Source of the DNA: Actinomycetota bacterium
GTDB lineage: Bacteria > Actinomycetota > Thermoleophilia > Gaiellales > Gaiellaceae
Assembly: GCA_003134505.1 (NCBI GenBank)
Contig: PLBK01000021.1
Coordinates: 157,276 to 221,275 of the forward strand
Length of the DNA stretch: 64,000 bases
Direction of reading: 5' to 3'
The notes beneath the pieces were generated by a model that saw only the letters and a list, made by a program, of their open reading frames with translations, did no database searches and was not told the DNA's origin. The position numbers and the translations under genes are program-made. Below are positions 26,418-59,590 of this stretch, piece by piece (the stretch's first letter is position 1; every line of letters starts with the position of its first letter).

Positions 26418-26467
26418 GACGTAGAGCCGCCCGTGGGTGCGCCACGGGCGGGAGACGGAGGATAGAC

Positions 26468-27910
26468 ATGAAGTTGCTCGGCTACGTCAGACGCTCGCAG
26501 GACTCGGGAACGGGAGTCTCCGAGGAGATCCAGCGCGAGAAGATCAAGCAGTGGGCGGCGCTCTACGACCACGAGGTCAAGTTCTTGAAGCCCGATCTGG
26601 ACGAATCGTCGTGGACGCTCGACCGGCCGGGGATGCAAGCGGCGCTGAAGCTGCTGGCCGAGGGCAAGGCGCAGGGGATCGTCGCCGCGACCCAGGACAG
26701 GCTGACCCGTCGAACCCGGGACTTCTGCAACCTGCTGGAGCTGGCGGAGGAGCAGGGCTGGCACGTGTTCGCGGTCGATACCGGCCTCGACACGACGAAG
26801 GACTCGACGATGCACAAGATCATGGCCGTCTTCGCCGAGCACGAGTATCGCGACAAGAAGGAACGCGGCGACGAAGCCCGCCGGAACGCGGTCCTAAACC
26901 ACGGCGTCCACGGCGGAACGAATCCGCCCCACGGCTACGAGTGGACCCAGCGCCTTGACCCGGAGACCGGAGCGCCGAAGTTCGACCGCGAGGGCCGACC
27001 GATGCGCGGGCCGCTGCAGCCCACCGCCGACGCTCCGCGCGTGAAGGCGGCGTTCGAGGCCTTCGCCGAGGGCGCGTCATGGACGGAGGTCACGGAGATC
27101 GCGGGGATGAAGTCGCACGGCGCGACGGCCGCGATGCTGTCGAACCGGGTCTACACCGGCGAAGCACGGTCGGGCACTTTCCTGAAGGAAGGCGCGCATC
27201 CGGCGATCGTGGACAGGGTGCTGTTTAACCGGGTGCATCGGAAGCTGACGGTCCGGCGCCGCGACTACTCGTATCGGATCGACGGGCAGAAGCGGGTCGG
27301 CGCCCTCCTCGGCGGCGGGGTCATGCGCTGCGGCCACTGCGGGTACGGCCTGGTCAAGGACGGGCACCGCTACAAGTGCGTGAAGCACGGCTGCAAGAAG
27401 ATCTCCATCGGCGCCGAAGCTGCCGAGTCGTATCTGCTCCTGCACGCGCTGGGCTGGCACGTGGCGTTGAATCCGATGCACATTGCGGACATGGACGCAG
27501 CGGCGCTGCCGGTGTTCGAGGAAGCGGTCGAGGCAGCGCAGGCGGAGCTGGCGGAGGTTGAGCGGATGCATGAGGCCGGTGAGCTGACGCCTTCGGCCTA
27601 CGGGAAGGCGCTCACCGTCGCGCAGCACGCGCTGGCGGCGGCGGAGACCGCCCTGGCAGAGGCGGAGGCATCGCGCGGGTGGCTGGGGCTGGACACGAAC
27701 GCTGTCCAGCGGAAGCTGGTCGGCGAGGGCAACGACGTGCGCGACATCGCGGCCGGACGCGACTTCGTCAAGCAGATGTTGCGTGCGACGGTGAAGCCGG
27801 TCGGCAAGGGCACGCACTTGCCGGTCGCTGAGCGGATGGAGATCGAGTTCCTGACCCCGCGCCCGGCGGTGGTGCAGGACATGCTCGATGAAGGGCTGGT
27901 GGCGGCATGA
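26468..27910 (+). CDS. large serine recombinase (integrase)
   Basis: MKLLGYVRRSQDSG catalytic-Ser N-terminus, resolvase domain (IVAATQDRLTRR), recombinase domain, Cys cluster CGHCGYGL..YKCVKHGC zinc ribbon, coiled-coil C-terminus. Confidence 0.9.
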   Translation: MKLLGYVRRSQDSGTGVSEEIQREKIKQWAALYDHEVKFLKPDLDESSWTLDRPGMQAALKLLAEGKAQGIVAATQDRLTRRTRDFCNLLELAEEQGWHVFAVDTGLDTTKDSTMHKIMAVFAEHEYRDKKERGDEARRNAVLNHGVHGGTNPPHGYEWTQRLDPETGAPKFDREGRPMRGPLQPTADAPRVKAAFEAFAEGASWTEVTEIAGMKSHGATAAMLSNRVYTGEARSGTFLKEGAHPAIVDRVLFNRVHRKLTVRRRDYSYRIDGQKRVGALLGGGVMRCGHCGYGLVKDGHRYKCVKHGCKKISIGAEAAESYLLLHALGWHVALNPMHIADMDAAALPVFEEAVEAAQAELAEVERMHEAGELTPSAYGKALTVAQHALAAAETALAEAEASRGWLGLDTNAVQRKLVGEGNDVRDIAAGRDFVKQMLRATVKPVGKGTHLPVAERMEIEFLTPRPAVVQDMLDEGLVAA

Positions 27911-28107
27911 GCGCCGGGAGTCTGACGGCGACCCAGCGCGCCTACAACGTCCTGCGCGAGGAGATAGAGACGATCGACGCGCCGGAGATCGACACGCCGG
28001 AGGCTAGTCCCGAGTATCGCGCGGGCCTGGCGCGGGCAATGGCGCTCCTGCTGGAGATGGACGAGGACGCTGATCCTGGACCGTCGATCCCCGGCCGCGT
28101 CTATTGA
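27907..28107 (+). CDS. small acidic hypothetical protein (possible recombination directionality factor; speculative)
   Basis: ATGA overlap with integrase stop suggests coupling; no family recognised. Confidence 0.45.
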   Translation: MSAGSLTATQRAYNVLREEIETIDAPEIDTPEASPEYRAGLARAMALLLEMDEDADPGPSIPGRVY

Positions 28108-28214
28108 ATGGGGTTGCACTCCCTGCGGCGAAGAGTACTCTGCGATCAGGGACGCGAAACGGCAGCGTGACGGATACGCGAGTACTCGGCTAAACGTCAC
28201 GCGCCCTGCGACCG

Positions 28215-28616
28215 ATGATCCGGGGCATGAAGCCGGAGTCGCTCTTCGAGTGGGCAGTTCGCGAGTTCCTGCAGAACCCGCGCCGCCACCCGCATCCCCA
28301 GCGCCCGGCGACTCCTCCTCCCGATCCACCTCCGAAGCCTGCGTTGCCCGTGCCGTACGTGTCCCGGCGGGGGGTGCTGCCCTACGGGTGCGCGCGTTGC
28401 CCTGACGGAACGGCCACCCGCATGATCGACCACGGCTCCTATTCCGAGGCCATCTGCGACGACTGCTTCGAGCGCGAGGGACCGACCCGGCCACCTCGCG
28501 CCTGCGCGTGCGGCTGCGGCGAATCGCTGGAGGGCAAGCGGCGAGGCGCGAAGTACCTGAACCACGCGCACCAGCAGCGCGGCCAGCGTGCTCGCGACCG
28601 GCTCAGGAAGTCGTAG
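28215..28616 (+). CDS. Cys-rich (zinc-ribbon-like) hypothetical protein
   Basis: CARCPDG..CDDCF..CACGCG cysteine pairs; basic C-terminus. Confidence 0.45.
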   Translation: MIRGMKPESLFEWAVREFLQNPRRHPHPQRPATPPPDPPPKPALPVPYVSRRGVLPYGCARCPDGTATRMIDHGSYSEAICDDCFEREGPTRPPRACACGCGESLEGKRRGAKYLNHAHQQRGQRARDRLRKS

Positions 28617-28878
28617 CGGCGCGCTCAAGGCGCTGGCGGGCTTCGCGGGCTGACTCGGCGTCGAAGTAGCAGACCAGCGCGGCGTACTGACCCGTCTTCC
28701 CGGTGACGACGCCTTCCCGCCCGAGCGTGACGGGCGGGTCGCCGTTCTCGGGGAAGTAGGTGTGGAGCAGAACGGCCTCCTGGGGCGGGCGCGTGTTCTC
28801 CTCCGGGACGAAGTGCCCGGTGATGGTCTTCTTCCGGCGGCGGAGCTGATGCGGGGAACGGCCCTCAGGGTGCGGCAT
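28603..28878 (-). CDS. hypothetical protein
   Basis: ATG directly follows stop of upstream gene (28879); last gene of a minus-strand operon. Confidence 0.45.
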   Translation of the reverse strand: MPHPEGRSPHQLRRRKKTITGHFVPEENTRPPQEAVLLHTYFPENGDPPVTLGREGVVTGKTGQYAALVCYFDAESAREARQRLERAATTS

Positions 28879-29073
28879 CTAGTCCGCCCAGTCGTCGGGG
28901 AGGTCAGGAAGATGGACGTGGGCGCTCTGGGCGCCGGGGACGTCCTGCGGCTCTTCGGCGCGTTCCCAGCGCAGCAGCTCCGAGGCGGCGCGGAGGCGGA
29001 CGTTCTCGTTCTTGGACTGGAGCAGCTCGCGCAAGACGCGGATTGCCTCCGGTTCGGTCGGCGTCGGGGTCAC
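28879..29073 (-). CDS. small hypothetical protein
   Basis: GTG start overlaps upstream stop (GTGA at 29070-29073); helical EAIRVLRELLQSKNENVRLRAASELL. Confidence 0.4.
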   Translation of the reverse strand: MTPTPTEPEAIRVLRELLQSKNENVRLRAASELLRWERAEEPQDVPGAQSAHVHLPDLPDDWAD

Positions 29074-29804
29074 AGCCTGATCACCCGGAGGCGGGCGCGG
29101 CCGTCCGTGGGCACCGGGAAGCCGGGCCACTCCGGGTAGCGCGCGTCGTAGATGAGACCCCGGAGCGTCCGCTTGAGCTGGAGCAGGTCTTCGTGACCCC
29201 TGATGGCGAACATCCTCCTCCTGCCCTGGTCGGGGCAACGGATCAGCCGGTCCGTGCGGAAGCCGTAGCGCTCGCGATCGTCGGGTTCGCCGGGAATCAG
29301 CCAGCCGGTGCGGAGCAGCTCGTGCTTGAACCACAGGGCGCGCTCGGAGGACCCGGCCACGGCCTCCAGCGCTTCACGATCGAGGCAGAGGTTGAAGTTG
29401 TGCGCCTTCGGCCAGCCGCGCAGCACGAAGACGTAGCCCTCGTCCGTGGCGCGCTCGATCTGGCCACGGCCCTCCACCTCGTTCGGCGCGGTCTCCGGTG
29501 GCAACGGGTCGGAGAGCGGGTACCGGGCTGCGAGTCGCCGGGATTCCTCGACGGAGTCGAGCGGGATCTCCGTCGTCTTCGGCATCCCCGCGCGGTTGGC
29601 GGCGGCGAGCCGCTTCCGCCGCACGGCCTTCGCCTTCTGCGCGGCGGCGGCGGATTCCCGCTCGACGGCGACGGCGCGGCGAATCCGGCGCCCGACGTTC
29701 GAGACCGCGATGCCGTGCACGACCGCGAGCTGGCGGTGGGTGGCTCCGGCGCGATGCTCTTCGAGCAGTACCTCGTCGGAGACCTTCAGCTTCGTCTCGG
29801 CCAT
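29070..29804 (-). CDS. HTH-domain protein with unknown C-terminal domain (candidate element regulator)
   Basis: N-terminal LLEEHRAGATHRQLAVVHGIAVSNVGRRIRR helix-turn-helix; ATG 29804 chosen within ORF 29070..29936. Confidence 0.55.
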   Translation of the reverse strand: MAETKLKVSDEVLLEEHRAGATHRQLAVVHGIAVSNVGRRIRRAVAVERESAAAAQKAKAVRRKRLAAANRAGMPKTTEIPLDSVEESRRLAARYPLSDPLPPETAPNEVEGRGQIERATDEGYVFVLRGWPKAHNFNLCLDREALEAVAGSSERALWFKHELLRTGWLIPGEPDDRERYGFRTDRLIRCPDQGRRRMFAIRGHEDLLQLKRTLRGLIYDARYPEWPGFPVPTDGRARLRVIRL

Positions 29805-30488
29805 ATGGTCACTACACCGCCGTTGAGCACGCCGGGCCAAGCGCGAGCGCATCCCGAGCAAGCCGCCAAGCCGCCACGTTGCCCACGTCGCCGCGTGTCC
29901 GCCGCTCTCCGGGCCTCCGGCGCCCGAGCCGGGCAACCGGGCGGTCCGGCGCGAGCAACCGGGGCCGATCGGGGCCGCGTAGATGGGGTGGTTGCGCGGA
30001 ATATGGCCGTTTGCGGGGCGTTCGCGACGGCCGAACGGCCGCAGAGACCCTACCCCTTCAGGATCGCCGGGTCATGCGCGGCCCGGCGGCAAGCTGCGCG
30101 GGTGCGGCATCGTCGGGGCCGCAGGCATGGCTGAGGGCGGCGTGAAGCCAACTACCCAGTCGTCCGTCCGCTTGCGGTAGCGCTTCCAGAACGGAGGCTT
30201 TAGGTTTTTTGGTTCGTCCTTCACGGTGTCCACTCCTGACGGGCCGGTGGTCGATCCTTCTGTCTCAGGGTACAGATGAGTTCGAGACTTGGGAATCACT
30301 CGTTCGGGTATCGCGACGTGCCCCGGCCCCGGCAACGAATCCGAGGTCGAGAACTTCCCGCTAGTACCGAGCAAATGGAGAACTTACGTGCCCGCTAAAA
30401 CGCATGAATCCTGGAGATAAAAATAGGATCGTATTTCCGGGCACGATCCCATTGACGATTCGAGTACCGAGGGCGCTATCCTGGGGTT

Positions 30489-30956
30489 ATGACTGAGAAG
30501 GCCAAGCAGGTGTTCTCCAGCGGCTTCCAGCGGCTCAAGGCCCGGCACGATGCACTCCTGGCGCAGCACGCGGCCCTGACCTCCGAGCTTGCCAAGGCGC
30601 AGGCTCGCGGCGAGTCTGACGAGGCCCTACGCAAGGCCATCGTCGCGGCGGTGCCGCAGGCGAAGCTCGTGGAAATCCTCAAGGCCGCGAACATCGGCCC
30701 GATCACATCCGAGTCCAGTGTCGAGGCCGACATGCTCCGCAGTCCGGCGGTGGCAGACGCCATCGAGGACGCGACGGCACGCCGAGGTCGGCAGAACGGA
30801 CTCGGCACTTGGGCACCCGTTGTGGACTCCGCCGCAGTGAAGGCCCTGGGCGAGAAGCCGCACGTCGCGGCTGCCGCGCGGCGCAACAAGGCCGAGCACG
30901 AGCGCCAGGTCGCGGCCCTCGATCAGGCTCGCGCGAACAGGGATCGGAGGGACTGA
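30489..30956 (+). CDS. hypothetical coiled-coil protein
   Basis: First gene of plus-strand operon after AT-richer divergent region. Confidence 0.5.
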   Translation: MTEKAKQVFSSGFQRLKARHDALLAQHAALTSELAKAQARGESDEALRKAIVAAVPQAKLVEILKAANIGPITSESSVEADMLRSPAVADAIEDATARRGRQNGLGTWAPVVDSAAVKALGEKPHVAAAARRNKAEHERQVAALDQARANRDRRD

Positions 30957-31171
30957 TGGCCCGCACTGAAATCTCCGGCAACGTCGTCACCCCTGATCCG
31001 ACGGACGCCTTCCAGACGGACGTGCTCCGAAACATCGAGGCGGGCGCGACGGACAACGGCGACGGCACCTGGACGCTGACCGATCCGGCGATGGTCACGT
31101 TCCTGGCAGTCGTCAATCGCTACGGAAACTCCTTCGGCGGGCTGCCGAGCACGCCGGGACGGGGGTGTTAG
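30956..31171 (+). CDS. small hypothetical protein
   Basis: ATG overlaps previous stop (TGATG). Confidence 0.45.
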   Translation: MARTEISGNVVTPDPTDAFQTDVLRNIEAGATDNGDGTWTLTDPAMVTFLAVVNRYGNSFGGLPSTPGRGC

Positions 31172-31173
31172 AC

Positions 31174-31338
31174 GTGGCGCACAACAAGTTCCTGGACGGC
31201 GCAGGCCCGGCGACCCAAGCGCAGAAGGACGCCTGGAACGAAGGACGCAAGACCGCCTACGACGCACTCGGCAACAAGACCAGTCCACAGTTCGGCTCCG
31301 CCGAGCACGAGGTAGCGGTCAAAGAGGGCAAGGTCTAG
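31174..31338 (+). CDS. small hypothetical protein (54 aa, below ORF-track cutoff)
   Basis: GTG 2 nt after previous stop; its stop overlaps next GTG start (TAGTG); fills the operon without gaps. Confidence 0.35.
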   Translation: MAHNKFLDGAGPATQAQKDAWNEGRKTAYDALGNKTSPQFGSAEHEVAVKEGKV

Positions 31339-31763
31339 TGACCGCCGTCTCGCACGCTGACCGCCTTACGTCCCGTGCACGCCGGGCGCAGGAGTGGGGC
31401 ACGCCCGATCCGACCGCCGGAGCACGAGCACGGCAGGCGCAGCGTGAAGAGGATGACCGCATCCTCGCGCTTGCCGCAGAGGAGGCCGACCTGGCTGAGG
31501 CCAAGCTCGCTGAGAAGGTGGCGTACGTCACCGAGCACTTGCCGCCCGCTATCGAAGAATACGAGCGTGCCCGCGAGGTCTACACCGAGGCCATCGAGGC
31601 GGCGGCTCGCGCGACGATGGCGTGCAACGCGGCCCGCGTGACCTACACAGATTTGTGGTCGAAGACTTTGGCGGTGGGCCAGCCGGTTCCCGTCAGACTT
31701 GCCCCGGTCGCACTCGGGGACGCCATTCGGACTATCAATGCCTACGGGCCAGGAGCCTGTTGA
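31338..31763 (+). CDS. hypothetical protein
   Basis: 141-aa ORF tightly coupled to the upstream small ORFs. Confidence 0.5.
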   Translation: MTAVSHADRLTSRARRAQEWGTPDPTAGARARQAQREEDDRILALAAEEADLAEAKLAEKVAYVTEHLPPAIEEYERAREVYTEAIEAAARATMACNAARVTYTDLWSKTLAVGQPVPVRLAPVALGDAIRTINAYGPGAC

Positions 31764-31771
31764 AAGGATGA

Positions 31772-31954
31772 TGCGATTTAGTTGAGGGCTTGTTGAAGCC
31801 GTGCGGATTCCACAACACCGAAACAACCGACCGCCCTGACGAGTTCAAGCGTGTACGGGAGTTAGAAAGGTCAAGCGTTATTTCGTACGGGTAAGCAGTG
31901 AGTGCACCTGCGAAGCCCCCGCCGGTGGTGTCGCAAACCCTCAACTAAATCGCA
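31772..31954. repeat. 183-bp element bounded by 17-bp perfect inverted repeats (tgcgatttagttgaggg / ccctcaactaaatcgca)
   Basis: IRs extend to 20/21; interior visibly AT-richer than flanks; lies between two same-strand ORFs. Confidence 0.8.
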
Positions 31955-31961
31955 CCGTCCG

Positions 31962-32564
31962 ATGTCCGGCAATCTGACGAGCTTCAACGTTCACCGATTC
32001 GTCGGCTTCGTGGCGTCGGCCCGGAGCGGCAAGCTGGAAGCGTTCGGCGTCGAACCGGGCACGCCGGTCGAGCAAACGCTGGAGGCCATGTCCGTGTTGG
32101 GAATCGACGCCGACACGATGACGAGCCTCTCGGCGGTCACCGCACCGATGGCGAAGGCCGTGGGCACGCCGGTCGGCTGGACGGGATCGGACGGCCTGGG
32201 CGATGCACTCAAGGCCGTCCAGCAAGCTCTGCCGGACGCCTACGACGTGAAAGACCTGGCCCTGGACTTGTCGGCCTGCCTCGTGCAGTCCGACCTTGGC
32301 AGCTACTTCCGCGTGCCGCTCGCGGCGGGCCTCAAGCCCGCTGACCGCTCCGCCTGGGTCGAGGTCGAGGAGTCCACGAGCTACACCGCGAAGGCATGGA
32401 CTCGTGACCCTGCCGGGCGCTTCGCCTCGGGCGGTGGCGGTGGCGGTGCTCGGCCTCGGTCGAAGAAGCCGAAGCAGGCGCTGCCCCCCTTCCCGGCGGA
32501 CGCCACTCCGAGGATGCACGAGACGGGCAAGGGCGCGGGCACCTGGAACCCGGCAGGCACCTGA
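31962..32564 (+). CDS. hypothetical protein with Gly/Lys-rich C-terminus
   Basis: ATG 31962 immediately after the IR element; no family recognised. Confidence 0.5.
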   Translation: MSGNLTSFNVHRFVGFVASARSGKLEAFGVEPGTPVEQTLEAMSVLGIDADTMTSLSAVTAPMAKAVGTPVGWTGSDGLGDALKAVQQALPDAYDVKDLALDLSACLVQSDLGSYFRVPLAAGLKPADRSAWVEVEESTSYTAKAWTRDPAGRFASGGGGGGARPRSKKPKQALPPFPADATPRMHETGKGAGTWNPAGT

Positions 32565-32611
32565 CAGCCGACGCTGCCGACGATCCTGGCAAGTGCCCGA
32601 GGGTCTAGCAG

Positions 32612-32647
32612 GCTTGCCCGCCTCAGTCAGGCGCTCGCCCGAGCGCG
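32612..32647 (-). repeat. family-A repeat core, copy 1
   Basis: Reverse complement matches CGCGCTCGGGCGAGYGCCTGACTGAGSCGGGCGAGC (one change: ..GGGCAAGC). Confidence 0.8.
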
Positions 32648-32671
32648 AACCGCCTCGCCGCTAGAAGGTCG

Positions 32672-33304
32672 TCACTTCCACCTGATGGCTTTGAAAACGA
32701 TGATGGTGCTGAACTTCGTTCCGTCGATCTGCCAGGCATAGCAGCCGAGGGAGCGGAGCCAGGTTCCGCCCAGCCACTCGCGCCAGCCGCCTGTGCCGTT
32801 GGCGGTCGGCACCGGCGGAAGCTGCGGATCGAACAGTTCCGGCGCGCCGTCCGGTGTCTCGCCGCCGAAGGCGACCTTCCCCGCTCCATCAAGGCGGCGG
32901 CCTCGGATGAAGACCGGCCCTTGGTAGCGCGGGTAAGCGAACCAGTCGATCTTCACTACCCACCAGCCATTCTTCTCGCGGGAGAACGGGATGATGCCGT
33001 GCTTGATGTCGCCCGCTCGGTCGATCAACGGCCTGACCGAGCCGTGACCGAGCGCGACGCCACCGAACTGGTTGTTGTCAATCTCGGAGCCGGTGCTCGT
33101 CGGACACGCCCCGCCGGGGCCGAGCTTGGGCAGGTGCAGCGGGCGTCGCAGCGCGCGTGGGACGTGCCCTGGCACCGCCTGACACCCGCCGTAGAGCGTG
33201 CACGTCTGCGCGTAACTCGTCGGCGTCGGTAGCGGCGCACCAGCAGACGGGCTACCGATGGCGGTGAGTCCGAGAGCGGCAAGGAACAAAGCAAGAAGCC
33301 TCAT
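32672..33304 (-). CDS. secreted hypothetical protein
   Basis: Signal peptide MRLLALFLAALGLTAIGSPSAGA; followed 3' by repeat copy 1. Confidence 0.6.
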   Translation of the reverse strand: MRLLALFLAALGLTAIGSPSAGAPLPTPTSYAQTCTLYGGCQAVPGHVPRALRRPLHLPKLGPGGACPTSTGSEIDNNQFGGVALGHGSVRPLIDRAGDIKHGIIPFSREKNGWWVVKIDWFAYPRYQGPVFIRGRRLDGAGKVAFGGETPDGAPELFDPQLPPVPTANGTGGWREWLGGTWLRSLGCYAWQIDGTKFSTIIVFKAIRWK

Positions 33305-33346
33305 CCAAACCTCCCGACAATGATAGGTCTACCCGGCGCTACGTCC

Positions 33347-33370
33347 GTCGCCTTCCCCGCAAAAGGCGAC
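33347..33370. repeat. family-B hairpin, copy g (gtcgcc-ttccccgcaaaa-ggcgac)
   Basis: GTCGC/GCGAC stem; reverse complement gtcgccttttgcggggaaggcgac resembles other copies. Confidence 0.6.
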
Positions 33371-33447
33371 AAGGGGGACACCTCTACTCCTCACTAGGTC
33401 ACCCTTTCGGGGTTGCTCCGGCGACAAGTTCCACCGATGACTTCGGT

Positions 33448-34116
33448 ATGAAGCGATACGTCGCTCTCCTGGTTGTCGTGGGCCTGATCGCCGTTCCCGT
33501 CGCGTTCCCGGCCATCGCACGTGGCCCGCAGGTGAAGTTGACGCCGGGTGGACAGCGGATCGCAAAGACGACCCTCGTTCGGGCTTCGGACGTGCCCGGT
33601 TGGAGCGGGTTTCCAGGAGCGTCGAGCGTGGGATCAGTTCCCGGCTGCGAGGGCGCGGGAGTGACGGGGGCTGGTCTTGTGCTCAACGGGCGAGCGAGCG
33701 CGGGATTCGAGAGGCAGGCAGGTATGTACGGCCACGACCTCGTGTCCACCTCTTACGTGTTCGAGACGCCGAGCCAGGCGAGCCGTTTCATGTCAGCGAT
33801 CAGTTCGACCAATCTCAAATGCCTGCGAGCTTCTGTCGAGTTCACCAAGAACGGGACGAAAGGCAACGAGGTAAGCGCGGGCAGCAACCGGCTCCCCCAA
33901 CTTGTCGAGCACCTGGCCGACGCTCAAGTACACGTCCGTGTCGTCACCGTCAGCGAGTCGAAGTGGGTCGCGGACTGGTACTTCGAGTCGATCTACCTCC
34001 AACAAGGCCGTACCGTCGGGGAACTCGTCTACTCAAGCCTCAACCAAGCCGATCACTCTGGCAGCGTTCACTTCGCAAGCATCGTCGCCAACCGGATCAA
34101 GAGTCACGCGCGATAG
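33448..34116 (+). CDS. secreted hypothetical protein
   Basis: Signal peptide MKRYVALLVVVGLIAVPVAFPAIA. Confidence 0.6.
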   Translation: MKRYVALLVVVGLIAVPVAFPAIARGPQVKLTPGGQRIAKTTLVRASDVPGWSGFPGASSVGSVPGCEGAGVTGAGLVLNGRASAGFERQAGMYGHDLVSTSYVFETPSQASRFMSAISSTNLKCLRASVEFTKNGTKGNEVSAGSNRLPQLVEHLADAQVHVRVVTVSESKWVADWYFESIYLQQGRTVGELVYSSLNQADHSGSVHFASIVANRIKSHAR

Positions 34117-34240
34117 ACCGCGAGCAGACGCGGCTGGCAAACGGCTATCTCCGCAAGCGCCTCCGCACCCACACGACTACCACTCCGCCGCCGCTTCGCC
34201 AAAACGGTTCGCCAAGCCCTCCTCGTAGTCTGTTACCGCT

Positions 34241-34276
34241 GCTCGCCCGGCTCAGTCAGGCGCTCGCCCGAGCGCG
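34241..34276 (-). repeat. family-A repeat core, copy 2 (extended unit about 34195..34293)
   Basis: gctcgcccggctcagtcaggcgctcgcccgagcgcg; about 100-bp unit nearly identical to copy 3. Confidence 0.85.
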
Positions 34277-34294
34277 GGTCGTGGCGCTCGCGGC

Positions 34295-34495
34295 TTAGTT
34301 CGCTTGGGCGCTCGTGAGCACTTCGCGGGCAGTCGCCAAATCAGACTCTTCGACCAGAATCTCCCGCCAGGTCTGGACGGTTCCAACCGGGTCAGCCTCC
34401 CGGTCGAAGCACTCGATTCCAGCCGTGCGAAGAAAAGAGCGAATCACGTCGGCCTCACCCTGGCTCCCTGCGACCGTGAGACGCACAAGACTCAT
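34295..34495 (-). CDS. small DUF2007-like (putative signal-transducing) protein; tentative
   Basis: 66 aa; LTVAGSQGEADVIRSFLRTAGIEC resembles DUF2007 pattern; flanked on both sides by family-A repeats. Confidence 0.5.
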   Translation of the reverse strand: MSLVRLTVAGSQGEADVIRSFLRTAGIECFDREADPVGTVQTWREILVEESDLATAREVLTSAQAN

Positions 34496-34547
34496 CCCGT
34501 ACGAGTTTCGCCAAGCGTTTCGCCAATCCCTCCTCGTAGTCCGACCT

Positions 34548-34583
34548 GCTCGCCCGGATCAGTCAGGCACTCGCCCGAGCGCG
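34548..34583 (-). repeat. family-A repeat core, copy 3 (extended unit about 34503..34600)
   Basis: gctcgcccggatcagtcaggcactcgcccgagcgcg plus shared flanks ..cctcctcgtagtc.. and ..gggtcgtggcgctcgcggc. Confidence 0.85.
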
Positions 34584-34611
34584 GGTCGTGGCGCTCGCGG
34601 CGAAGTTGTCG

Positions 34612-35079
34612 TTAGTGGGCGGCTACGCGGATGTAGAAGTCGTACGTCCGCGTCTGTGCTCCATGGATCAAGTGCGCCACAACCTTCCAGCAGCCGGGCG
34701 ACGAGAACGTGAGTGCTGAAACCTGGAAGCCGATGGTTCCGTAGCCGTACGTGATTTCGGCTTTCAGTGGTGGGGCTTTGGCGTCCAACCGTGATCCGGA
34801 GACGCGCAGCCGACCCGGCGTCTCCCGATACCACGCGATCTTCATACCTCTCGGATCGGCCACGAAGTTGTGATCGCCCCGGCTATAGGCCATCCAGAGG
34901 TTGCCCTGCCGGAGCCAATGGATCGAGAGGCCACCCATGTACGCGCTCGGCGGTCTGGGCGAGACAGGTGTGAGGCGACAAGCGTTCGTCGAGCGCGACG
35001 TGCTGTCGGTCGCGTCCGCGACTGCAACACCCGTGATCGCAAGCACGATCATCGACGTTATGACCATGCGAAGACCCAC
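34612..35079 (-). CDS. secreted hypothetical protein
   Basis: N-terminal hydrophobic signal (MVITSMIVLAITGVAVA); flanked by repeat copies 3 and 4. Confidence 0.55.
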   Translation of the reverse strand: MGLRMVITSMIVLAITGVAVADATDSTSRSTNACRLTPVSPRPPSAYMGGLSIHWLRQGNLWMAYSRGDHNFVADPRGMKIAWYRETPGRLRVSGSRLDAKAPPLKAEITYGYGTIGFQVSALTFSSPGCWKVVAHLIHGAQTRTYDFYIRVAAH

Positions 35080-35120
35080 GTAAGAATCGTATCAAGGCGT
35101 TTCGCCAGCGCCACCACGAA

Positions 35121-35156
35121 GCTCGCCCGGCTCAGTCAGGCGCTCACCTGAGCGTG
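35121..35156 (-). repeat. family-A repeat core, copy 4 (diverged)
   Basis: gctcgcccggctcagtcaggcgctcacctgagcgtg. Confidence 0.75.
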
Positions 35157-35158
35157 AC

Positions 35159-35184
35159 TGTCGTGGTTCCAGCAGAAGACGACA
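35159..35184. repeat. family-B hairpin, copy f
   Basis: Reverse complement tgtcgtcttctgctggaaccacgaca; first 16 nt identical to copy c at 60715. Confidence 0.75.
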
Positions 35185-35282
35185 CGCCCGAGCTAAGACG
35201 AAGTGCAGGGATGTGCCCGCGACAGCCTGTAGACGATCCTCCCGGTGAGCTTGTTTGCTGACGTTCAACCGGCGAGGAGCGC

Positions 35283-35849
35283 CTAATCCACGAACTTCTG
35301 CGCGAAGTAGAACTCGCTCACCCGGCCACGGCGGATGTAGATGAAGAACCACGGCTTGAGGAAGTTCGCCACCCCCGCGTGAAGCGACTGCGCTGCGAGG
35401 CCGACCTTGACCCAGCACTGGCACGGTTTCTCTTTCCTCCATGCGTTCCAGATGAAGCCGTGCCAGCGGTGCTCGCACCGACTCGTTGCTGTTCGATGAC
35501 ACGGCCCGAACGGGATGATGCTTCCAACTCCGAATCCGCTCTTCGTCCGGTAGTAGCGAGTCGTGAAGTCGAGTTCGTTGACGCGGCCATCCTCGAACGT
35601 CACATACACCCGGCTTCCGTGGAGCCGGTAGTAGCCCTGGATGATGCCGCTGACCCGATCAAGCACGTGGTAGCCATGCCCTTCTGACCCATACTCCCGT
35701 TCCACATGCGCCTTCGACTCGCCCAGCGCGATATCGCCAATCTTGTGCCACGGAACGAGAACCGGCGGGTCGCTCCTGCCGGGACTGCTTGAGGCGATCC
35801 CCGTGACGGCGAACGAGGCGAGCAGTGCGAGAACGAGAGTCCTCCGCAT
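35283..35849 (-). CDS. secreted hypothetical protein
   Basis: Signal peptide MRRTLVLALLASFAVTGIASS; Cys-containing mature part. Confidence 0.6.
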   Translation of the reverse strand: MRRTLVLALLASFAVTGIASSSPGRSDPPVLVPWHKIGDIALGESKAHVEREYGSEGHGYHVLDRVSGIIQGYYRLHGSRVYVTFEDGRVNELDFTTRYYRTKSGFGVGSIIPFGPCHRTATSRCEHRWHGFIWNAWRKEKPCQCWVKVGLAAQSLHAGVANFLKPWFFIYIRRGRVSEFYFAQKFVD

Positions 35850-36039
35850 CAGAACTCAGTATCGGTGCATCAGCACGTGACGCGTAGCCCTCTTTGTAGG
35901 GCTGTCGCGCTTCCACCAGTCTGCGTCATCCGCGCCACGACCTAGCGCCCGCTAATCGGGCACCAAGCTCTGCATGACCACGGGCAACGCCGCAGTCGCG
36001 AACGACCCGAGGTTGCTCTTGTCGCTTTCTATTCAACCG

Positions 36040-36090
36040 CCAGGGTGAGGTGCGGAGGGAAGCCGTGGACGGGGACTCCCTCCGCCCTGG
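36040..36090. other. strong extended hairpin (9-bp core stem gcggaggga/tccctccgc, outer ccagg/cctgg)
   Basis: Read directly; lies in the 340-bp gap between oppositely oriented gene blocks. Confidence 0.7.
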
Positions 36091-36188
36091 GTGCCGACAT
36101 GACGCGGCGGTGAACCTAGTCCCACACTACCCAGTCCCACCTCCGGGCCTTAAGGCGGGACGACGCCACTCGGTAGAACAACAGATAG

Positions 36189-36653
36189 ATGCCCAGCATG
36201 GACTCCTACCGCCGGATTAGCCGCGAAGCAGAGCTGCTCGCAGGCGTCATCATCAAGCGGCTCAGGCACGAAGGCTGCACCGACGAGGAGATCGTTCAGT
36301 ATCTGAAGGCGATCGTCTCCCCGGCGGCGCCGACAAGCTCCGCCGTCTCCAGCGCGATCGGCAAGGCGCTGCGGAACCCCGGCTTCGCCGTCCGCATCAG
36401 CGACGAGGGCACCAGGGTCACCGACCACCGGCCCTTCGCGCTGATTCACCATCCCAGCGTCGAGGTGCCGACCGGCGATCCCCGCAACGACCTGGCGAAG
36501 TCGCTCTTCGACCCGAAGCGCATGGAGAAGGACACCCTCGCCGACATGGAGAAGCACCAGCTCCACAAGGCCCGCGCCAACCAGCTCGACGCCGCAGACC
36601 AGCACGATTTGACCGCGCGCATCCGCAAGCGGCGCGCGAAGGAACAGGGCTAA
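36189..36653 (+). CDS. hypothetical protein
   Basis: 154-aa ORF, first of a coupled plus-strand block. Confidence 0.5.
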   Translation: MPSMDSYRRISREAELLAGVIIKRLRHEGCTDEEIVQYLKAIVSPAAPTSSAVSSAIGKALRNPGFAVRISDEGTRVTDHRPFALIHHPSVEVPTGDPRNDLAKSLFDPKRMEKDTLADMEKHQLHKARANQLDAADQHDLTARIRKRRAKEQG

Positions 36654-36916
36654 TGGCCATCACCGCGATCAAGCGCGACCGCTCGAACGGCACCTGGCTG
36701 GTGGCCGGTCTCGTCTCAGACTTCGCGGGCTACCCGCACTCCAGCGATGCCCACGGAGGCATCAAGGCGCAGACGTCATGGGCCGATCAGGTCGATGGCG
36801 CACAGGCCGTGCTCGACGTTGACGGCGGCATCCTGCCGCCCAGCGCAACGCCGACCTGGATCATCCCCGACTGCCTGGCTCAGGATCTGGGCCTGATCGC
36901 GGAGGACTCCCCGTGA
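36653..36916 (+). CDS. hypothetical protein
   Basis: ATG overlaps previous stop (TAATG). Confidence 0.5.
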   Translation: MAITAIKRDRSNGTWLVAGLVSDFAGYPHSSDAHGGIKAQTSWADQVDGAQAVLDVDGGILPPSATPTWIIPDCLAQDLGLIAEDSP

Positions 36917-37557
36917 GCGTCTCCGCCGAGATCTTCGCCGAGGGCCTGATCAGGGTCGATGGGCGCTGGGTCGAAGACCCCGCGTTCGACCCGCACCGGA
37001 TCATCCGTCCCGAGGACGAGGAGCAGGAGAGCGAAGCAGCCGCACGCGCACGCGCTGTGGCGGCAGAGGACGCTGACCACGAGACGCGCGAACGGGCCGA
37101 GCTGACCGCTGGCGATCTTGTCCGCGTCGTGGACGAGAAGGGAGCGCGCTGGGTGGAACCTGGCCGCGCACCTGGCTCGATGTCCGGCGCGATGGAGGCG
37201 CTACACGCCGAGATGAAGGAGCTGGACGAGCTGTCCCAGCGCGTCATCCTGGCGCCCAAGGCGAAGAAGCGCCTGGCCGAACTGCCGGGCCTGATCGCCG
37301 CCATCCACCGGCGCGAGGAAGAGGCGGCGCAGGCGAAGGAATCTGACGATGCCGAGTTCCGGGAGCACTACGAGGGGGCGGTGCAGGAGTACCTCACCGC
37401 GCTGCGGGCATTCGTGGACGCGAAGGACGACGTGGATCGCATCCGCCTGGACGCGATGGCGCGCGGCATCTACCTGGAGAAGATCGAAGTTCGGGCCAGC
37501 CAGGACAGGACCCTCTACAAGCTTCTCGAACGTGCTCGCGCGACGGCGCTGGCCTAG
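36913..37557 (+). CDS. hypothetical coiled-coil, acidic protein
   Basis: GTGA overlap with previous gene. Confidence 0.5.
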   Translation: MSVSAEIFAEGLIRVDGRWVEDPAFDPHRIIRPEDEEQESEAAARARAVAAEDADHETRERAELTAGDLVRVVDEKGARWVEPGRAPGSMSGAMEALHAEMKELDELSQRVILAPKAKKRLAELPGLIAAIHRREEEAAQAKESDDAEFREHYEGAVQEYLTALRAFVDAKDDVDRIRLDAMARGIYLEKIEVRASQDRTLYKLLERARATALA

Positions 37558-37564
37558 AGCGCTG

Positions 37565-37903
37565 ATGCCGACCAGTCCGTTCTCGAAAGCCGTGCTCCAG
37601 AAGCTGGAGCAGATGCGGATGGACGAGGTCTCCGGCGTGGATGCCGGGGCCAACCTGATCGACGGCTGGATGGTCATGAAGAACCGGCAGCGCGTCGAAA
37701 AGGCGCTGACGGACCTGATCGACAAGACCGACGTCCGGGCCGACCGTCACGCAGTCCGGCACCCGAGCACCGGCCGCTACGTCCCGAAGCCGAAGCCGGA
37801 GGACGAGATCGACGGCGCAGCGGCGGCATCCGCCAACGGCGCCATGAAGACGGTCCTGCCGTGGCGGCACGGCGGGCTTCCGCTTCTCTGCTTCCGCCGC
37901 TGA
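37565..37903 (+). CDS. hypothetical protein; N-terminal EVSGVDAGAN motif faintly reminiscent of phage head-maturation/scaffold proteins
   Basis: ATG 37565 inside ORF 37349..37903; motif similarity is weak and from memory. Confidence 0.35.
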   Translation: MPTSPFSKAVLQKLEQMRMDEVSGVDAGANLIDGWMVMKNRQRVEKALTDLIDKTDVRADRHAVRHPSTGRYVPKPKPEDEIDGAAAASANGAMKTVLPWRHGGLPLLCFRR

Positions 37904-38062
37904 TCAGGCGGCTGCCGCTGCACGCTGTCAGCTCCCGCGCGGCAGTACCAGCCACGAAGGCGCTCATTCAATGGCCAGAGCTTGGTTCGCTCGGCGAACG
38001 CGCGTACCTGGCCGAGGATCCCTGGCGATCTCCGGCCCGCTTCGCCACGTCCAAAAAGAGGA

Positions 38063-38854
38063 CTAGAGAAGCTGCTTCGCGCGAGACTGGAACAACCCAA
38101 TCTCGTAGCCGACGTCGTATTCGAGCTGCGCGACGGTATAGGGCTTGCCCTTGGGGCCGAAGACTGCGCAGGTGTCAATGACGACGAGCACCTCAGTGCG
38201 CTGCGAGGCGGCGAGCAGGCAGTGTCCCACAGGAACCCGCCGTACGCGAAACCGAATAGCCATGCCAAGCGGAGGTGTCGCGGTCGGCTTCAAGCACGAC
38301 GTTGGTGGGCAGCTCTTCGCGAAGACGCTCACCGCATTAGCAGCGGAGTTGAAGAGGTAGACGGAGATGATCGCCTCTGGTCTGTTCAGTCCCCGATCCC
38401 GATACGTCGCTCTCGCGCCGCCGACGAATCCGGCCCATAACGATCCGATTCTGTTGACGGACGATCGTGTGTCGTACTCCGCCTTGCTCGCCGTGGGAAA
38501 AATGGCGATTGCCGTGGCGGCGGTTATCCGTTTGGTCCCCGACGGTGCCGTGTAGTAGGTGAGATGTCCGCTCGGCGGGCAGTCGAACCCATACTTGTGG
38601 TACTCGGGATTACCGACCTTGCAGAACTCGCCCGCATGGAGGCACTTCTCACCCCAGCTCAACTGCGCGTCAACGAAGCCGGGTGGGCATGTCTTGAGCG
38701 TGTGGGCGGGATGGTCTGCGCGGAACTGGTGCGCCGAGCCTGCGAGGGCTGTCCCACTTGCGAAAGCCGTCCCGGTCGCAAGAGCCACGGTCGCGATGAG
38801 TGCGCCGATCCGAGATCGAGTGGAGATCTTCGTCGTCAGGGTCTTGTACGTCAC
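38063..38854 (-). CDS. secreted Cys-rich hypothetical protein
   Basis: GTG 38854 overlaps upstream stop (GTGA); signal peptide IGALIATVALATGTAFASGTALA. Confidence 0.5.
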   Translation of the reverse strand: MTYKTLTTKISTRSRIGALIATVALATGTAFASGTALAGSAHQFRADHPAHTLKTCPPGFVDAQLSWGEKCLHAGEFCKVGNPEYHKYGFDCPPSGHLTYYTAPSGTKRITAATAIAIFPTASKAEYDTRSSVNRIGSLWAGFVGGARATYRDRGLNRPEAIISVYLFNSAANAVSVFAKSCPPTSCLKPTATPPLGMAIRFRVRRVPVGHCLLAASQRTEVLVVIDTCAVFGPKGKPYTVAQLEYDVGYEIGLFQSRAKQLL

Positions 38855-39504
38855 GAAGCCGACAGCGCAGGAGGCGATGGCTTGACCGAATCCAGTGCTG
38901 CGAGGTCTTGTTGTAGTTGGGCGATGAGAGCTGGTACCTCGCCTCGGTAGTGGGCTAGAGCGAGGTCTAGCCGGAAGTCGAACCAGCCCGAGACTTGGGG
39001 GCCATAGTGGACGGTCGTCGGTTTCTGCCGATTTGAGACCGAAAAAATCGTTGAGCCGTCCGCGGTGTGCTGGAAGCCGACCATCTTGTCGAAGCGGCAT
39101 TCCCTTGTCTGCTTAGCCCCCTGGAAAACCACGCGCTGATTGGTGACGTAGACGGTCCCCAAATCAATCGCTGTCGGAACCGGCGCGCCCTGAACGAAGT
39201 GGCCTCTTGACGAACCAACGCGGTAGCGGATCGAGCGTCCGCCGATGCTGCCGATGGGGAACGACACACCGCTGGAGCGGCCCTGCCACTGACCCGCGCC
39301 CCGTCGGTCCTCGATGAGACCCGCACCGGTGATAAGCGCGAAGACCGCCTCGCCACGCTTCAGCATGATGCCGTTGGATGCCTCGCCGGAGTAGGTCTGT
39401 GCAAGCGCCAGAAGAGCGGCAGAGGCATCGCGCTGTTCCTTCCAGTGCGCCAACTGCGCGTTGTACTGCTTTGCAGCCCTCTTTGCTCGATACTTTTCAA
39501 ACAT
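38851..39504 (-). CDS. hypothetical protein with bacterial PH-like (YokE/GRAM-like) C-terminal domain; tentative
   Basis: GTVYVTNQRVVFQGAKQTRECRFDKMVGF pattern typical of bacterial PH-like domains. Confidence 0.5.
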   Translation of the reverse strand: MFEKYRAKRAAKQYNAQLAHWKEQRDASAALLALAQTYSGEASNGIMLKRGEAVFALITGAGLIEDRRGAGQWQGRSSGVSFPIGSIGGRSIRYRVGSSRGHFVQGAPVPTAIDLGTVYVTNQRVVFQGAKQTRECRFDKMVGFQHTADGSTIFSVSNRQKPTTVHYGPQVSGWFDFRLDLALAHYRGEVPALIAQLQQDLAALDSVKPSPPALSAS

Positions 39505-39657
39505 CTCCGCTTCGACCCTGTTCGGAGCCTAGTCGGCTCGACGGTAGTCCGAACCGCCCAGGTAGCACTCGGCGTGAAACATCGAGCCAAACCCTACAAG
39601 GCTTGTCGTCGCCCTGTGTTGACGCCGCCCAGCCCGTCGTGGAAGAGTCTCGCTGGC

Positions 39658-40170
39658 ATGGGCCGGAGAATCGCCCACGTCGCACTCCTTCTCGCAGTCG
39701 TCGCCGCCATCGCTGCGACCGCCTCGGCTGCTCGCAGGCCCATCCTGACCGAGTTCGGGGCTACGCGGAAGGTTTGGTTCGCTCACCACGTTCTCGACGC
39801 AAACCCGAAGCTCGAGCGCGGGTGCTGCTTCCTACCGCGGCAGCGCGACGGAACCGATCAGTACATCACGGTCCAATACGGGGCGGGCACTCACGTCGAC
39901 ATGTTCGAGATGGACTTCGCGCCTACCATCTCGATCGCATATGCGCGACAAGTCGTGCTTCGTGAAGCCGGGCCTGGGGCGAAGCTCGTTTACGACTTGA
40001 AACCGGCAGGTTGCGAGCAGATCGAATACCGCAGCTCGCTGCTCAGTCGAGCAGTCGGCGGCGCCATGTTCGCCGAACTCTCACGGAACGGTAGCGGCGG
40101 CGCGCCGAAAGGCCATGTCGGCGACGTTCTCTTCATCGCGCTTTCCGTAGGCGCCCATCCCGGCTGTTAG
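39658..40170 (+). CDS. secreted hypothetical protein
   Basis: Signal peptide MGRRIAHVALLLAVVAAIAATASA. Confidence 0.55.
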   Translation: MGRRIAHVALLLAVVAAIAATASAARRPILTEFGATRKVWFAHHVLDANPKLERGCCFLPRQRDGTDQYITVQYGAGTHVDMFEMDFAPTISIAYARQVVLREAGPGAKLVYDLKPAGCEQIEYRSSLLSRAVGGAMFAELSRNGSGGAPKGHVGDVLFIALSVGAHPGC

Positions 40171-40180
40171 AGGTGTGAAA

Positions 40181-40693
40181 ATGAACGGAGAGCCGACGCC
40201 AAAGCAGGCAGTGAGGGACCGGAAGACCGGCGATCTGCTCTACAAGGGATACAACGGAAACCTCGTCCTGACCGATCGCGGCGTGGTCGTCCAGCGTGGC
40301 GCGAAGGGACTCCTGCTGCAGCAGTCACTCCGAGGCGAGAAAGAGATTCCCTACGACTCGATCGTTGCCGTCCAGTTCAAGAAGGGCGGCATGATGGCGG
40401 GTTATATCCAGCTCTCTCTTCGTGGAGGCAGTGAGGCGAAGCGAGGGATCAACGAAGCACTGAAGGACGAGAACACCGTCTCCTTCCAGTTCACGAGCAA
40501 CGGCCGCTTCCAGGAGGCGAGGGAGATCATCAACTACCGAGTTGAGCGCACGAAGAATCAGGAGCAGAGCGGCAGCCCCCGCGATGCTGATCCGGTGGCC
40601 AGGCTCCGTGAGCTTGCGGAGCTGCGCGACCAGGGAGTACTCAACGAGGAGGAGTTCCTGGCGGCCAAGAAGCGATTACTGGGTCAGCTCTAG
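40181..40693 (+). CDS. PH-like (DUF4429-type) domain protein with C-terminal SHOCT domain
   Basis: LVLTDRGVVVQRG..IPYDSIVAVQFKKGGMMAGYIQLSL plus C-terminal LRELAELRDQGVLNEEEFLAAKKRLL (SHOCT). Confidence 0.65.
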   Translation: MNGEPTPKQAVRDRKTGDLLYKGYNGNLVLTDRGVVVQRGAKGLLLQQSLRGEKEIPYDSIVAVQFKKGGMMAGYIQLSLRGGSEAKRGINEALKDENTVSFQFTSNGRFQEAREIINYRVERTKNQEQSGSPRDADPVARLRELAELRDQGVLNEEEFLAAKKRLLGQL

Positions 40694-40819
40694 CCACCGG
40701 GTCGGTACGAAGTCGTGGCGGTTCCTCGAATGTCCGAAGGGGCCATTCCCTTCTTGCCGTACCAGAGCTAGTCGTACGCGGGACGGCCTCCGCCGGAGGC
40801 CACGGACAAGGAGGGCGAG

Positions 40820-55943: not shown

Positions 55944-55944
55944 A

Positions 55945-59589: not shown

Positions 59590-59590
59590 A

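Follow-up and report, generated by a model that had tools for sequence, protein, structure and literature searches.

Short intergenic repeats of the repetitive extragenic palindromic (REP) and bacterial interspersed mosaic element (BIME) type are familiar from Proteobacteria and from some further phyla. Insertion sequences (IS) of the IS200/IS605 group transpose as single strands, by means of HUH/Y1 enzymes, next to a target tetranucleotide, and the Correia elements of Neisseria, which belong to the miniature inverted-repeat transposable elements (MITEs), are small, non-autonomous and intergenic, with a TA-containing target and possible terminator or promoter activity. The mycobacterial interspersed repetitive units (MIRUs) of Mycobacterium are reportedly intergenic repeats oriented with the operon; they form tandem arrays and contain small open reading frames (ORFs) that overlap the stop and start codons of their neighbours. 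The Thermoleophilia, and the Gaiellales within them, are abundant, almost uncultured soil actinobacteria. We analyzed a 64-kb stretch of DNA from a member of the Gaiellaceae (assembly GCA_003134505.1, contig PLBK01000021.1, positions 157,276 to 221,275; hereafter the window) and describe an intergenic repeat found there, family A. Most likely it belongs, as one motif among several, to a family of short intergenic repeats of mosaic build that resemble REP and BIME elements.

The REP and BIME elements of Enterobacteria and Pseudomonas include GTAG- and CGTC-tagged REPs (Di Nocera et al., 2013, PMC3733652; Bertels and Rainey, 2011, PMC3116915). The 2013 survey of tagged REPs also covers other phyla and never mentions Actinobacteria (PMC3733652), and a limited literature search found no description of short interspersed repeats in Thermoleophilia or Gaiellales. 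Family A is a new repeat family in a new lineage, with an unusual edge tetranucleotide, YTAR (Y, pyrimidine; R, purine), and a long non-hairpin core, while the kind of element itself is already known. The genome that carries it has about 70% G+C, and two core proteins have their closest named homologues in metagenome-assembled genomes of Gaiellaceae (class Thermoleophilia). The left third of the window is ordinary chromosome, with genes for an AIR-synthase-related protein, CtaA, PAC2, Tag, ProC and a 2-oxoacid:ferredoxin oxidoreductase.

The 36-nucleotide (nt) core of A reads CGCGCTCGGGCGAGYGCCTGACTGAGSCGGGCGAGC. Copy counts and negative results refer, unless another scope is given, to 72 kb, made up of the window and the adjoining 8 kb beyond its right end; this extension was taken from the ENA scaffold WOOD18-1_SAMN07124964 scaffold_363 (L049), which is 100% identical to window positions 50759-64000 and then continues for 8 kb more. 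The original prediction, made from the letters of the window, had placed four minus-strand cores at 32612, 34241, 34548 and 35121. All four are borne out, with 1, 0, 1 and 3 mismatches to its consensus, against an expected count of zero (none in 100 dinucleotide-preserving shuffles). That inventory missed two plus-strand cores at 55908 and 59554, which bring the window total to six copies (c1-c6), and a profile search built from the copies revealed no weaker ones in the window. Three further copies (c7-c9) are found in the extension, namely two full plus-strand elements at the equivalents of 64634-64698 and 68066-68132 and a decayed one (c9) at the equivalent of 66323-66364. The window copies, including those joined to the accompanying modules B and C that are described below, are as follows.

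32605..32675, minus strand: A copy c1, core 32612-32647; CTAG at both edges; 10 nt past the TGA of gene 32672..33304; between convergent genes
34195..34300, minus strand: A copy c2, long form A+C, core 34241-34276; hairpin directly after the TAA of the DUF2007 gene; C at 34195-34235
34507..34607, minus strand: A copy c3, long form A+C, core 34548-34583; begins 10 nt past the TAA of gene 34612..35079; 53 nt separate its end from the DUF2007 gene start
35115..35185, minus strand: A copy c4, B+A, core 35121-35156; B (35158-35185) in place of the usual hairpin; partial C at 35093-35107
55881..55971, plus strand: A copy c5, A+B, core 55908-55943; B at 55945-55971; abuts the TAG of a small ORF at 55728..55889
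59528..59614, plus strand: A copy c6, A+B, core 59554-59589; B at 59591-59614; upstream of an operon for an extracytoplasmic function (ECF) sigma factor

Copy c5 also lies 58 nt upstream of a secreted-protein gene that starts near 56001, and a Logan contig ends within copy 2.

Each A unit is 60-70 nt long and consists of a YTAR tetranucleotide, a GCGAGC/GCTCGC hairpin with a loop of 4-10 nt, and the 36-nt core. The 3' edge is sharp, as similarity stops right after GGGCGAG(C/G). Several details of the original prediction can be read directly in the sequence, namely the hairpin that precedes the core, the doubled CGGGCGAGC with a spacing of about 22 nt, and the motif TGAcTGA. Five GCGAGC/GCTCGC half-sites are packed into about 65 nt. 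In ten copies, 23 of the 36 core positions are invariant, and this conservation includes positions that would form loops. The core contains a palindrome, GCGCTCG-GG-CGAGCGC (7+2+7), and a weaker 6-bp hairpin, CGCCTG/CGGGCG; the two overlap and thus cannot form together. Among the three core substitutions of c4, a G-to-A and a C-to-T change keep the palindrome as GCTCR-GG-YGAGC, an outcome of which one such event is reached in 50 of 500 shuffles, and for the second core hairpin no double change was found among the copies. In the consensus fold A forms two hairpins, both small and local, and its two ends repeat each other directly rather than in inverted form. Only c6 folds clearly better than shuffled sequences; an AG-to-TT change in this copy extends the second hairpin from 6 pairs to 9. 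What is conserved in the core is the sequence, and not demonstrably a structure.

The 5' edge of A is marked by YTAR in 7 of 12 copies. The tetranucleotide is CTAG in c1 and c7, CTAA in c2 and c8, and TTAG in c5 and c9; it abuts the hairpin in c1, c2, c5, c7 and c8 and lies 8-10 nt off in c3 and c4. GTAG is found once at this edge, in L040, one of three soil-metagenome contigs with A (L039, L040 and L041). YTAR occurs at a frequency of 1.5 per kb, and 1.4% of random 12-nt windows hold one. In c1 and c8 the upstream gene ends in a TGA further upstream while a separate CTAG or CTAA still abuts the element, so that YTAR is not simply the stop codon there. Also, the homology between c5 and c8 begins exactly at the YTAR edge. 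Given these two observations, we regard YTAR as belonging to the 5' edge of A, where it would be either the target or the element's first bases.

A does not occur alone, and two further modules, B and C, are joined to it in a mosaic. Module B is a family of palindromic hairpins of the form TGTCGC..CTTTGCTGGAAG..GCGACAG, the best copies of which read (C)TGTCGCnCTTTGCTGGAAGnGCGACAG. The pattern TGTCG-N-CTGGAA-N-CGACAG has 8 matches in the window against 2.3 expected, and at least 12 copies of B are present in the 72 kb. Its stems are 11-13 bp long with folding z-scores from -2.1 to -4.9, and the differences between copies keep the stem paired. B is placed at gene ends and upstream of secreted-protein genes; it directly follows the core on the 3' side in c5, c6, c8 and c9 and directly precedes it on the 5' side in c4. 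The window positions of B are 33347-33371, 35158-35185, 52284-52308, 54355-54380, 55945-55971, 57225-57252, 58227-58252, 59591-59614 and 60714-60741, of which three illustrate B apart from A.

57225..57252, strand not assigned: B alone, a hairpin with a 13-bp stem between convergent genes; z = -4.9
60714..60741, strand not assigned: B alone, about 15 nt past the stop of gene 60759..62093
33347..33371, minus strand: B-like hairpin between the divergent genes 32672..33304 and 33448..34116

Module C follows A on the 3' side only in c2 and c3, with a fragment beside c4. The original prediction had noticed a unit of roughly 100 bp common to copies 2 and 3, and this unit proved to be 106 bp long at 88% identity; the string GACTACGAGGAGGGMTTGGCGAAMCG, which it had assigned to the same two copies, is indeed confined to them apart from a fragment beside copy 4. 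Read along the stretch, the order is A, gene, B, inverted gene, C and A, DUF2007 gene, C and A, gene, partial C with A and B, gene, and a B-like hairpin. The arrangements seen are therefore A+B (c5, c6, c8 and c9), B+A (c4), A+C (c2 and c3) and B alone (57225, 60714 and 33347). A set of motifs that combine at intergenic sites, in an order and orientation that vary, fits the definition of a BIME-type mosaic. The resemblance to BIME/REP mosaics that the original prediction had suggested is thereby strengthened, given at least three short motifs in varying order, copies outside the supposed array, the opposite orientation of some of them, copies in contigs with unrelated genes, and decayed copies.

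Decay and recombination are both visible among the copies. About one third of the core positions are lost in c9, c7 has a 1-nt deletion in the invariant GACTGA, and c8 has changes in both palindrome arms. Outside the pairs c2/c3 and c5/c8, the flanks of the A copies are unrelated, and only 60-70 nt with sharp edges are shared. The pair c5/c8 forms a 239-bp duplication (window 55884-56122 against L049 3790-4030, equivalent to 68067-68303) that covers A+B, the 5' untranslated region (UTR) and the first 40 or so codons of a 421-aa secreted-protein gene; the duplicate on the c8 side is cut off by an IS256-type transposase gene. Identity within this duplication is about 86% over A+B and about 99% over the next 150 nt (5' UTR and signal-peptide codons), where a single 1-nt deletion on the c8 side is the sole difference, and the jump falls inside B. 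At several positions that differ between the two, c8 matches other A copies and not c5. On the simplest reading of this alignment, a recent copy of the downstream segment probably became attached, within B, to another A copy of greater age, and such a mosaic junction indicates that the repeats act as recombination joints. The similarity of c2 and c3, the presence of C in c2-c4 and that of B in c5-c9 fit local duplication or gene conversion.

All nine A copies in this genome are intergenic, and so are those of L039 and L041, whose flanks are readable. A co-oriented gene precedes seven of the eight intact copies. The hairpin starts 0-1 nt after the upstream stop in c2, c5 and c7, 10 nt after it in c1 and c3, and 22 nt after it in c8, and the hairpin region of c4 lies about 100 nt past the upstream stop with B in between; measured from the core, the distances to the stop are 24, 18, 28 and 126 nt for the four minus-strand copies. 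The exception in orientation is c6, which is antisense to both of its neighbours, one of them a gene fragment. Near this copy, a 55-aa ORF (59638-59805, minus strand) resembles the C-terminus (60759-60823, minus strand; ...AYDAQGRV...) of a 444-aa protein that is encoded beside an ECF sigma gene, and it is probably a fragment left by rearrangement. In the region from 32.6 to 35.9 kb, four of the five genes are co-oriented and each is then followed by A, and the one inverted gene has no copy of its own.

32672..33304, minus strand: 210-aa gene; N-terminal signal-like segment; no family match
33448..34116, plus strand: 222-aa gene; signal-like segment; the sole gene of the stretch on the other strand
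34295..34495, minus strand: 66-aa DUF2007 gene; cytoplasmic-type; 106-bp A+C units on both sides
34612..35079, minus strand: 155-aa gene; signal-like segment; no family match
35283..35849, minus strand: 188-aa gene; signal-like segment; uncharacterised metagenomic family with at least 358 homologues

The four minus-strand ORFs of the original prediction are all present, with a coding-type G+C content at third codon positions (GC3). Its description of these genes as secreted, judged here by eye from hydrophobic signal-like segments at the N-terminus, applies to three of the four and also to the plus-strand gene 33448..34116, but not to the 66-aa gene, which encodes a cytoplasmic-type DUF2007 protein. 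An exact look-up of this 66-aa protein returned no record, and an all-against-all BLASTP comparison of 34 window proteins gave no matches that would make the flanking genes paralogous.

The copies are concentrated in two islands. A close relative (CAKYPE010000019.1, L052), whose S9 peptidase is 89% identical to that of the window, is collinear with window positions 21412-26388 and then continues directly with 42385-46320, so that the 16.0 kb from 26389 to 42384 represent an insertion.

26389..42384, strand not assigned: integrated island; carries c1-c4 and a large serine recombinase gene at 26468-27910

The island starts 80 bp before the serine recombinase gene and splits a 239-aa gene into 26055..26417 and 42367..42825. 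Its junctions are imperfect direct repeats, GGCGGGGGCT (26379-26388) and GGGCGGCTGCT (42384-42394), and the empty site in the relative reads GGCGGGTGCT. The junction core GGCGG(G/C)(G/T)GCT at 26379-26388 and 42384-42394 is unrelated to A; given this lack of resemblance, the possibility that A is the attachment (att) site of the island's serine recombinase was rejected. No PHROG match was obtained for 10 island proteins and no Pfam phage hallmarks were seen that would point to a phage origin of the island, and the recombinase has no relative in IMG/VR. Two other relatives have genes different from those of the window to the right of the S9 peptidase gene, and no A copy is found in 36 kb from these relatives.

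The right-hand island, of lower GC and with ECF sigma genes, holds c5-c9. Three ECF sigma genes lie within 5 kb there (58973-59467, 62090-62581 and 62739-63299), among secreted-protein genes; after two of the three sigma genes come paralogous genes of membrane or anti-sigma-like type (58257..58976 and 60759..62093). The extension contributes a SIR2_2-domain gene (1002 aa) and IS256-type and IS5-type (DDE_Tnp_1) transposases (L049 1-890, 2888-3784 and 6503-7369); the IS5-type element is located between c7 and c9 and is flanked by CTAG and TTAG, one at each side. An even spread of the motif, which the original prediction had named as the sign of a generic repeat or terminator, is not seen in the 72 kb, where all nine copies lie in two strain-specific, lower-GC islands. 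YTAR is itself denser in the islands (2.4 per kb against about 0.7 per kb outside), which contain about 84 of the 111 YTAR sites. Scaled to this density the enrichment of A in islands is not significant (P about 0.08), and therefore no island bias is claimed beyond that of the target.

Outside this genome, a pattern scan of JGI metagenome contigs detected the full A element, hairpin included, in the three soil-metagenome contigs. In one it comes about 200 nt downstream of an ORF judged by eye, from the translation, to be RNase II/R-like, in another about 270 nt past a histidine-kinase-like ORF, and in the third it stands at a contig end. The cores of L040 and L041 are identical to that of c2 up to the last base; there L041 has a G, and the L040 contig has already ended. 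Among 185,579 representative genomes, which do not include the source species, only chance matches in the 'LTEAGE' codons of LysR-type genes were found; annotated plasmid and phage records gave no match, and IMG/VR a single candidate match to a short 21-base pattern. Homologues of the 188-aa gene at 75-77% identity provide five loci of relatives with the gene and without A. Module B also occurs in related Gaiellaceae contigs (L044, L054 and L055), and in two of these, L054 (83% identity) and L055 (74-77%), it stands on both sides of a homologue of the 188-aa gene or of a gene pair, again without A; in all, four A-free related contigs have B next to such homologues. These loci show that A is not tied to the genes that it flanks, and B appears as the older and more widespread partner.

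Taken together, the evidence inclines us, by no means firmly, towards regarding A as an intergenic repeat of the REP/BIME kind, dispersed, non-autonomous and specific to its lineage, that lands at TA-containing stop sites. New copies would arise beside YTAR, and as this tetranucleotide is rare in a genome with about 70% G+C and mostly found at TAA or TAG stops, copies would come to lie directly 3' of genes. An insertion in the opposite orientation would end up within the reading frame and disappear, which would explain the co-orientation with the upstream gene without any function. The lower-GC and TA-richer islands would gather most copies. Once placed, copies are probably transcribed as part of a 3' UTR and, with strong B hairpins, may end or stabilise transcripts, and any role as a terminator or 3' UTR would be secondary to the nature of A as a dispersed repeat. 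The copies may further supply homology for recombination that reshuffles neighbouring genes.

A number of observations weigh against this interpretation. TAA or TAG account for 33 of the 62 stop codons, and since about half of the stops have this form, the association with YTAR is partly a by-product of lying beside stops. A clear direct repeat at both edges is present only in c1 (CTAG), and the 3' CTAG of c7 may belong to the adjacent IS. A lacks terminal inverted repeats, no transposase is linked to it, and no Y1/HUH gene occurs within the 72 kb, which is also the only part of the genome for which the copy number is known. With only three other contigs recovered by the metagenome pattern scan, A appears to be rare or narrowly distributed. 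The 106-bp direct repeats around a single gene (c3-DUF2007-c2) form a pattern that cassette insertion would also leave. RNAalifold identified no covarying pairs in A, covariation being not significant for either candidate structure, and the folds differ from copy to copy in both DNA and RNA, with folding z-scores mostly near zero. Conservation of the core at the sequence level, loops included, together with the lack of covariation, fits protein recognition or recent spread better than a role as an RNA hairpin.

In an unlikely alternative, A is a selected cis-element of the host, either a protein-binding site or a terminator, insulator or stabiliser in the 3' UTR at the ends of accessory genes, and its spread is incidental. 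The 23 invariant core positions, the core matches between this genome and the metagenome contigs and the five half-sites speak for such an element, as do the palindrome kept by the c4 substitutions, the longer second hairpin of c6, and the seven of eight intact copies that are co-oriented with the upstream gene near its stop. The same proposal is difficult to reconcile with the lack of a U-tract terminator at every copy, the non-significant covariation and near-zero z-scores, the decay or indels of c7, c8 and c9, and the antisense placement of c6; relatives carry the 188-aa gene homologues without A, and Rfam gave no match even at E up to 10 (one chance snoRNA match only in 32400-36100). We regard it as hardly credible that the A copies are immobile and functionless remnants of segmental duplications of one ancestral intergenic region. 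The pairs c2/c3 (106 bp) and c5/c8 (239 bp) are clearly duplications or conversions, but the remaining copies share only their 60-70 nt with sharp edges between unrelated flanks, A stands beside unrelated genes in the contigs of other organisms, and within c5/c8 it is A that is least similar.

The layout of c1-c4, gene-repeat-gene-repeat with mostly co-oriented single genes, had been compared to a cassette array in the original prediction, and A might in that case be a recombination site that builds single-gene cassette arrays, integron-like but served by another recombinase. This appears quite improbable to us. Pfam scans of 60 GC3-supported window ORFs contained no tyrosine recombinase (Phage_integrase domain); the sole recombinase found in them is that of the large serine type at 26468-27910, located 6 kb from the distal end of the array and with att junctions (GGCGG..GCT) unlike A, and the Pfam labels of the extension show only DDE transposases. 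A regular-expression search of both strands of the 72 kb for an attC pair RYYYAAC...GTTRRRY, 50-140 nt apart, had no match, no conserved AAC or GTT is present at the edges of A, and no hairpin joins its two ends in DNA, RNA or consensus folds. Given that clusters of attC sites lacking integron integrases (CALINs) have no integrase either, the absence of this gene does not by itself exclude attC; with the R''/R' signature and the spanning hairpin also missing, identity with an integron attC was rejected, and the cassette array of the original prediction was not upheld in the integron sense. Single A copies are moreover found in other contexts (c6, L039 and L041), some copies are decayed, and no cassette-level strain differences were found, the only empty-site relative lacking the whole island. 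The idea nevertheless draws on the 106-bp direct repeats that bracket the DUF2007 gene alone, on the greater likeness of neighbouring than of distant copies (C in c2-c4, B in c5-c9), on the two clusters facing outward from a central region, and on the exact coincidence of the start of the c5/c8 homology with the 5' edge of A. It can also be speculated, although we hold it to be very unlikely, that A, together with B, delimits modules of one gene each, which an enzyme cutting beside YTAR at stops carries from island to island; this enzyme could be a transposase, of the HUH/Y1 type or another, with its gene elsewhere in the genome. Such a mechanism would accord with the 106-bp repeats around one gene, the edge-precise c5/c8 homology and the fact that B brackets members of the 188-aa family in several genomes. 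If true, Gaiellaceae islands would assemble arrays of secreted-protein genes by a cassette mechanism independent of integrons.

As a dispersed repeat of the REP/BIME kind, A shares with the described elements that it is a short extragenic repeat mostly located just downstream of coding regions, where REPs and BIMEs are co-transcribed, that a palindromic unit (here B) is combined with non-palindromic motifs in varying order and orientation, and that a conserved edge tetranucleotide lies beside a hairpin; decayed copies and use as recombination substrates are further common traits. It differs in its tag, as neither GTAG nor CGTC at the edge of A is the rule and YTAR is found instead, and in a 36-nt core that is mostly no simple stem-loop. 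Inverted REP doublets (REPINs) were not seen, no gene for a REP-associated tyrosine transposase (RAYT) is seen within the 72 kb, the host belongs to the actinobacterial Thermoleophilia lineage, and A is apparently rare. B starts with TGTC, given in the 2013 survey as a CGTC variant (PMC3733652) and here part of the stem.

Similarities with the other systems are more limited. By analogy, the position of the tetranucleotide immediately 5' of a subterminal hairpin, the lack of terminal inverted repeats and the lack of a regular target duplication may recall IS200/IS605 elements and their miniatures, but no Y1 transposase or TnpB lies near A, and its orientation follows the genes without a bias of the lagging-strand type. 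Like integron attC sites and CALINs, A is a repeated site 3' of several co-oriented single genes, and sites within the array are alike; unlike them, it occurs as solitary copies, without IntI among the ORFs scanned, without R''/L''/L'/R' or GTTRRRY, and without a spanning hairpin. With MIRUs it has in common an actinobacterial host, an intergenic position, orientation with the flanking genes and stop codons at the edges, whereas A copies are single and their antisense mini-ORF failed a codon-position test. Similarly to Correia elements, A is small, non-autonomous and intergenic with a TA-containing target, yet it has no terminal inverted repeats and a clear target duplication only in c1 (CTAG).

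If A and B are indeed such repeats, they would explain breaks of short-read assemblies inside the islands of such genomes and could be exploited as markers for strain typing. TA-containing stops in very high-GC genomes would become landing pads for repeats, and the repeats would serve as recombination joints that shuffle accessory secreted-protein genes. Current concepts would remain unchanged, with the REP/BIME theme extended to a new lineage and a new motif.

Several other identities were considered for A and rejected. Spacings of 1629, 307 and 573 nt are irregular, unlike those of a CRISPR array. A canonical Rho-independent terminator was dismissed as there is no U tract at any copy; a terminator consensus scan of 32000-36500 returned 2 sites against 2.3 expected, neither of which overlaps A, and a hairpin terminator without a U tract ('I-shaped') is still conceivable. 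No match to Rfam 15 at the gathering score was found in the 64 kb, and A was thus not assigned to a known RNA family. A MITE was rejected because A has no inverted repeats at its 5' and 3' ends and CTAG is found at both edges only in c1, and a promoter because no sigma-70-like site is present and two copies lie between convergent genes. On the antisense strand of A, c5 (55940-55946), c6 (59586-59592), L039 and L041 have an ORF of 19-21 codons with a start codon, MLARLSQALARAR..LAA*, which reads M-L-A-R-L-S-Q-A-L-A-R-A-R-..-L-A-A-stop and in whose frame the two commonest core polymorphisms are synonymous. As a gene it was rejected, since about 4 of some 14 distinct changes, classified by hand, fall at third codon positions, as expected by chance.

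Some features of the window have no direct relation to these repeats. ARAGORN called a tRNA-Ser(CGA) at 1436-1529, within the AIR-synthase-related ORF 618..1691 whose Pfam match reaches residue 355 of 357, and this is probably a false-positive call. At 18011-20267, adjacent genes encode two calcium-binding repeat proteins of the RTX/haemolysin type, one of which has BNR repeats, and a Logan contig from the same sample breaks near 17383, just upstream of these genes. A protein with collagen-triple-helix and lamin-tail domains is encoded at 23410-24591. Between 51000 and 54000 the plus strand has a strong skew of G over C (0.15-0.17 in 2-kb windows), far above the remainder of the window, and few convincing ORFs. 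Finally, a 405-aa secreted protein encoded at 54464-55681 contains five HAF repeats (TIGR02913), which are visible in the DNA as periodic repeats of 129-135 bp.

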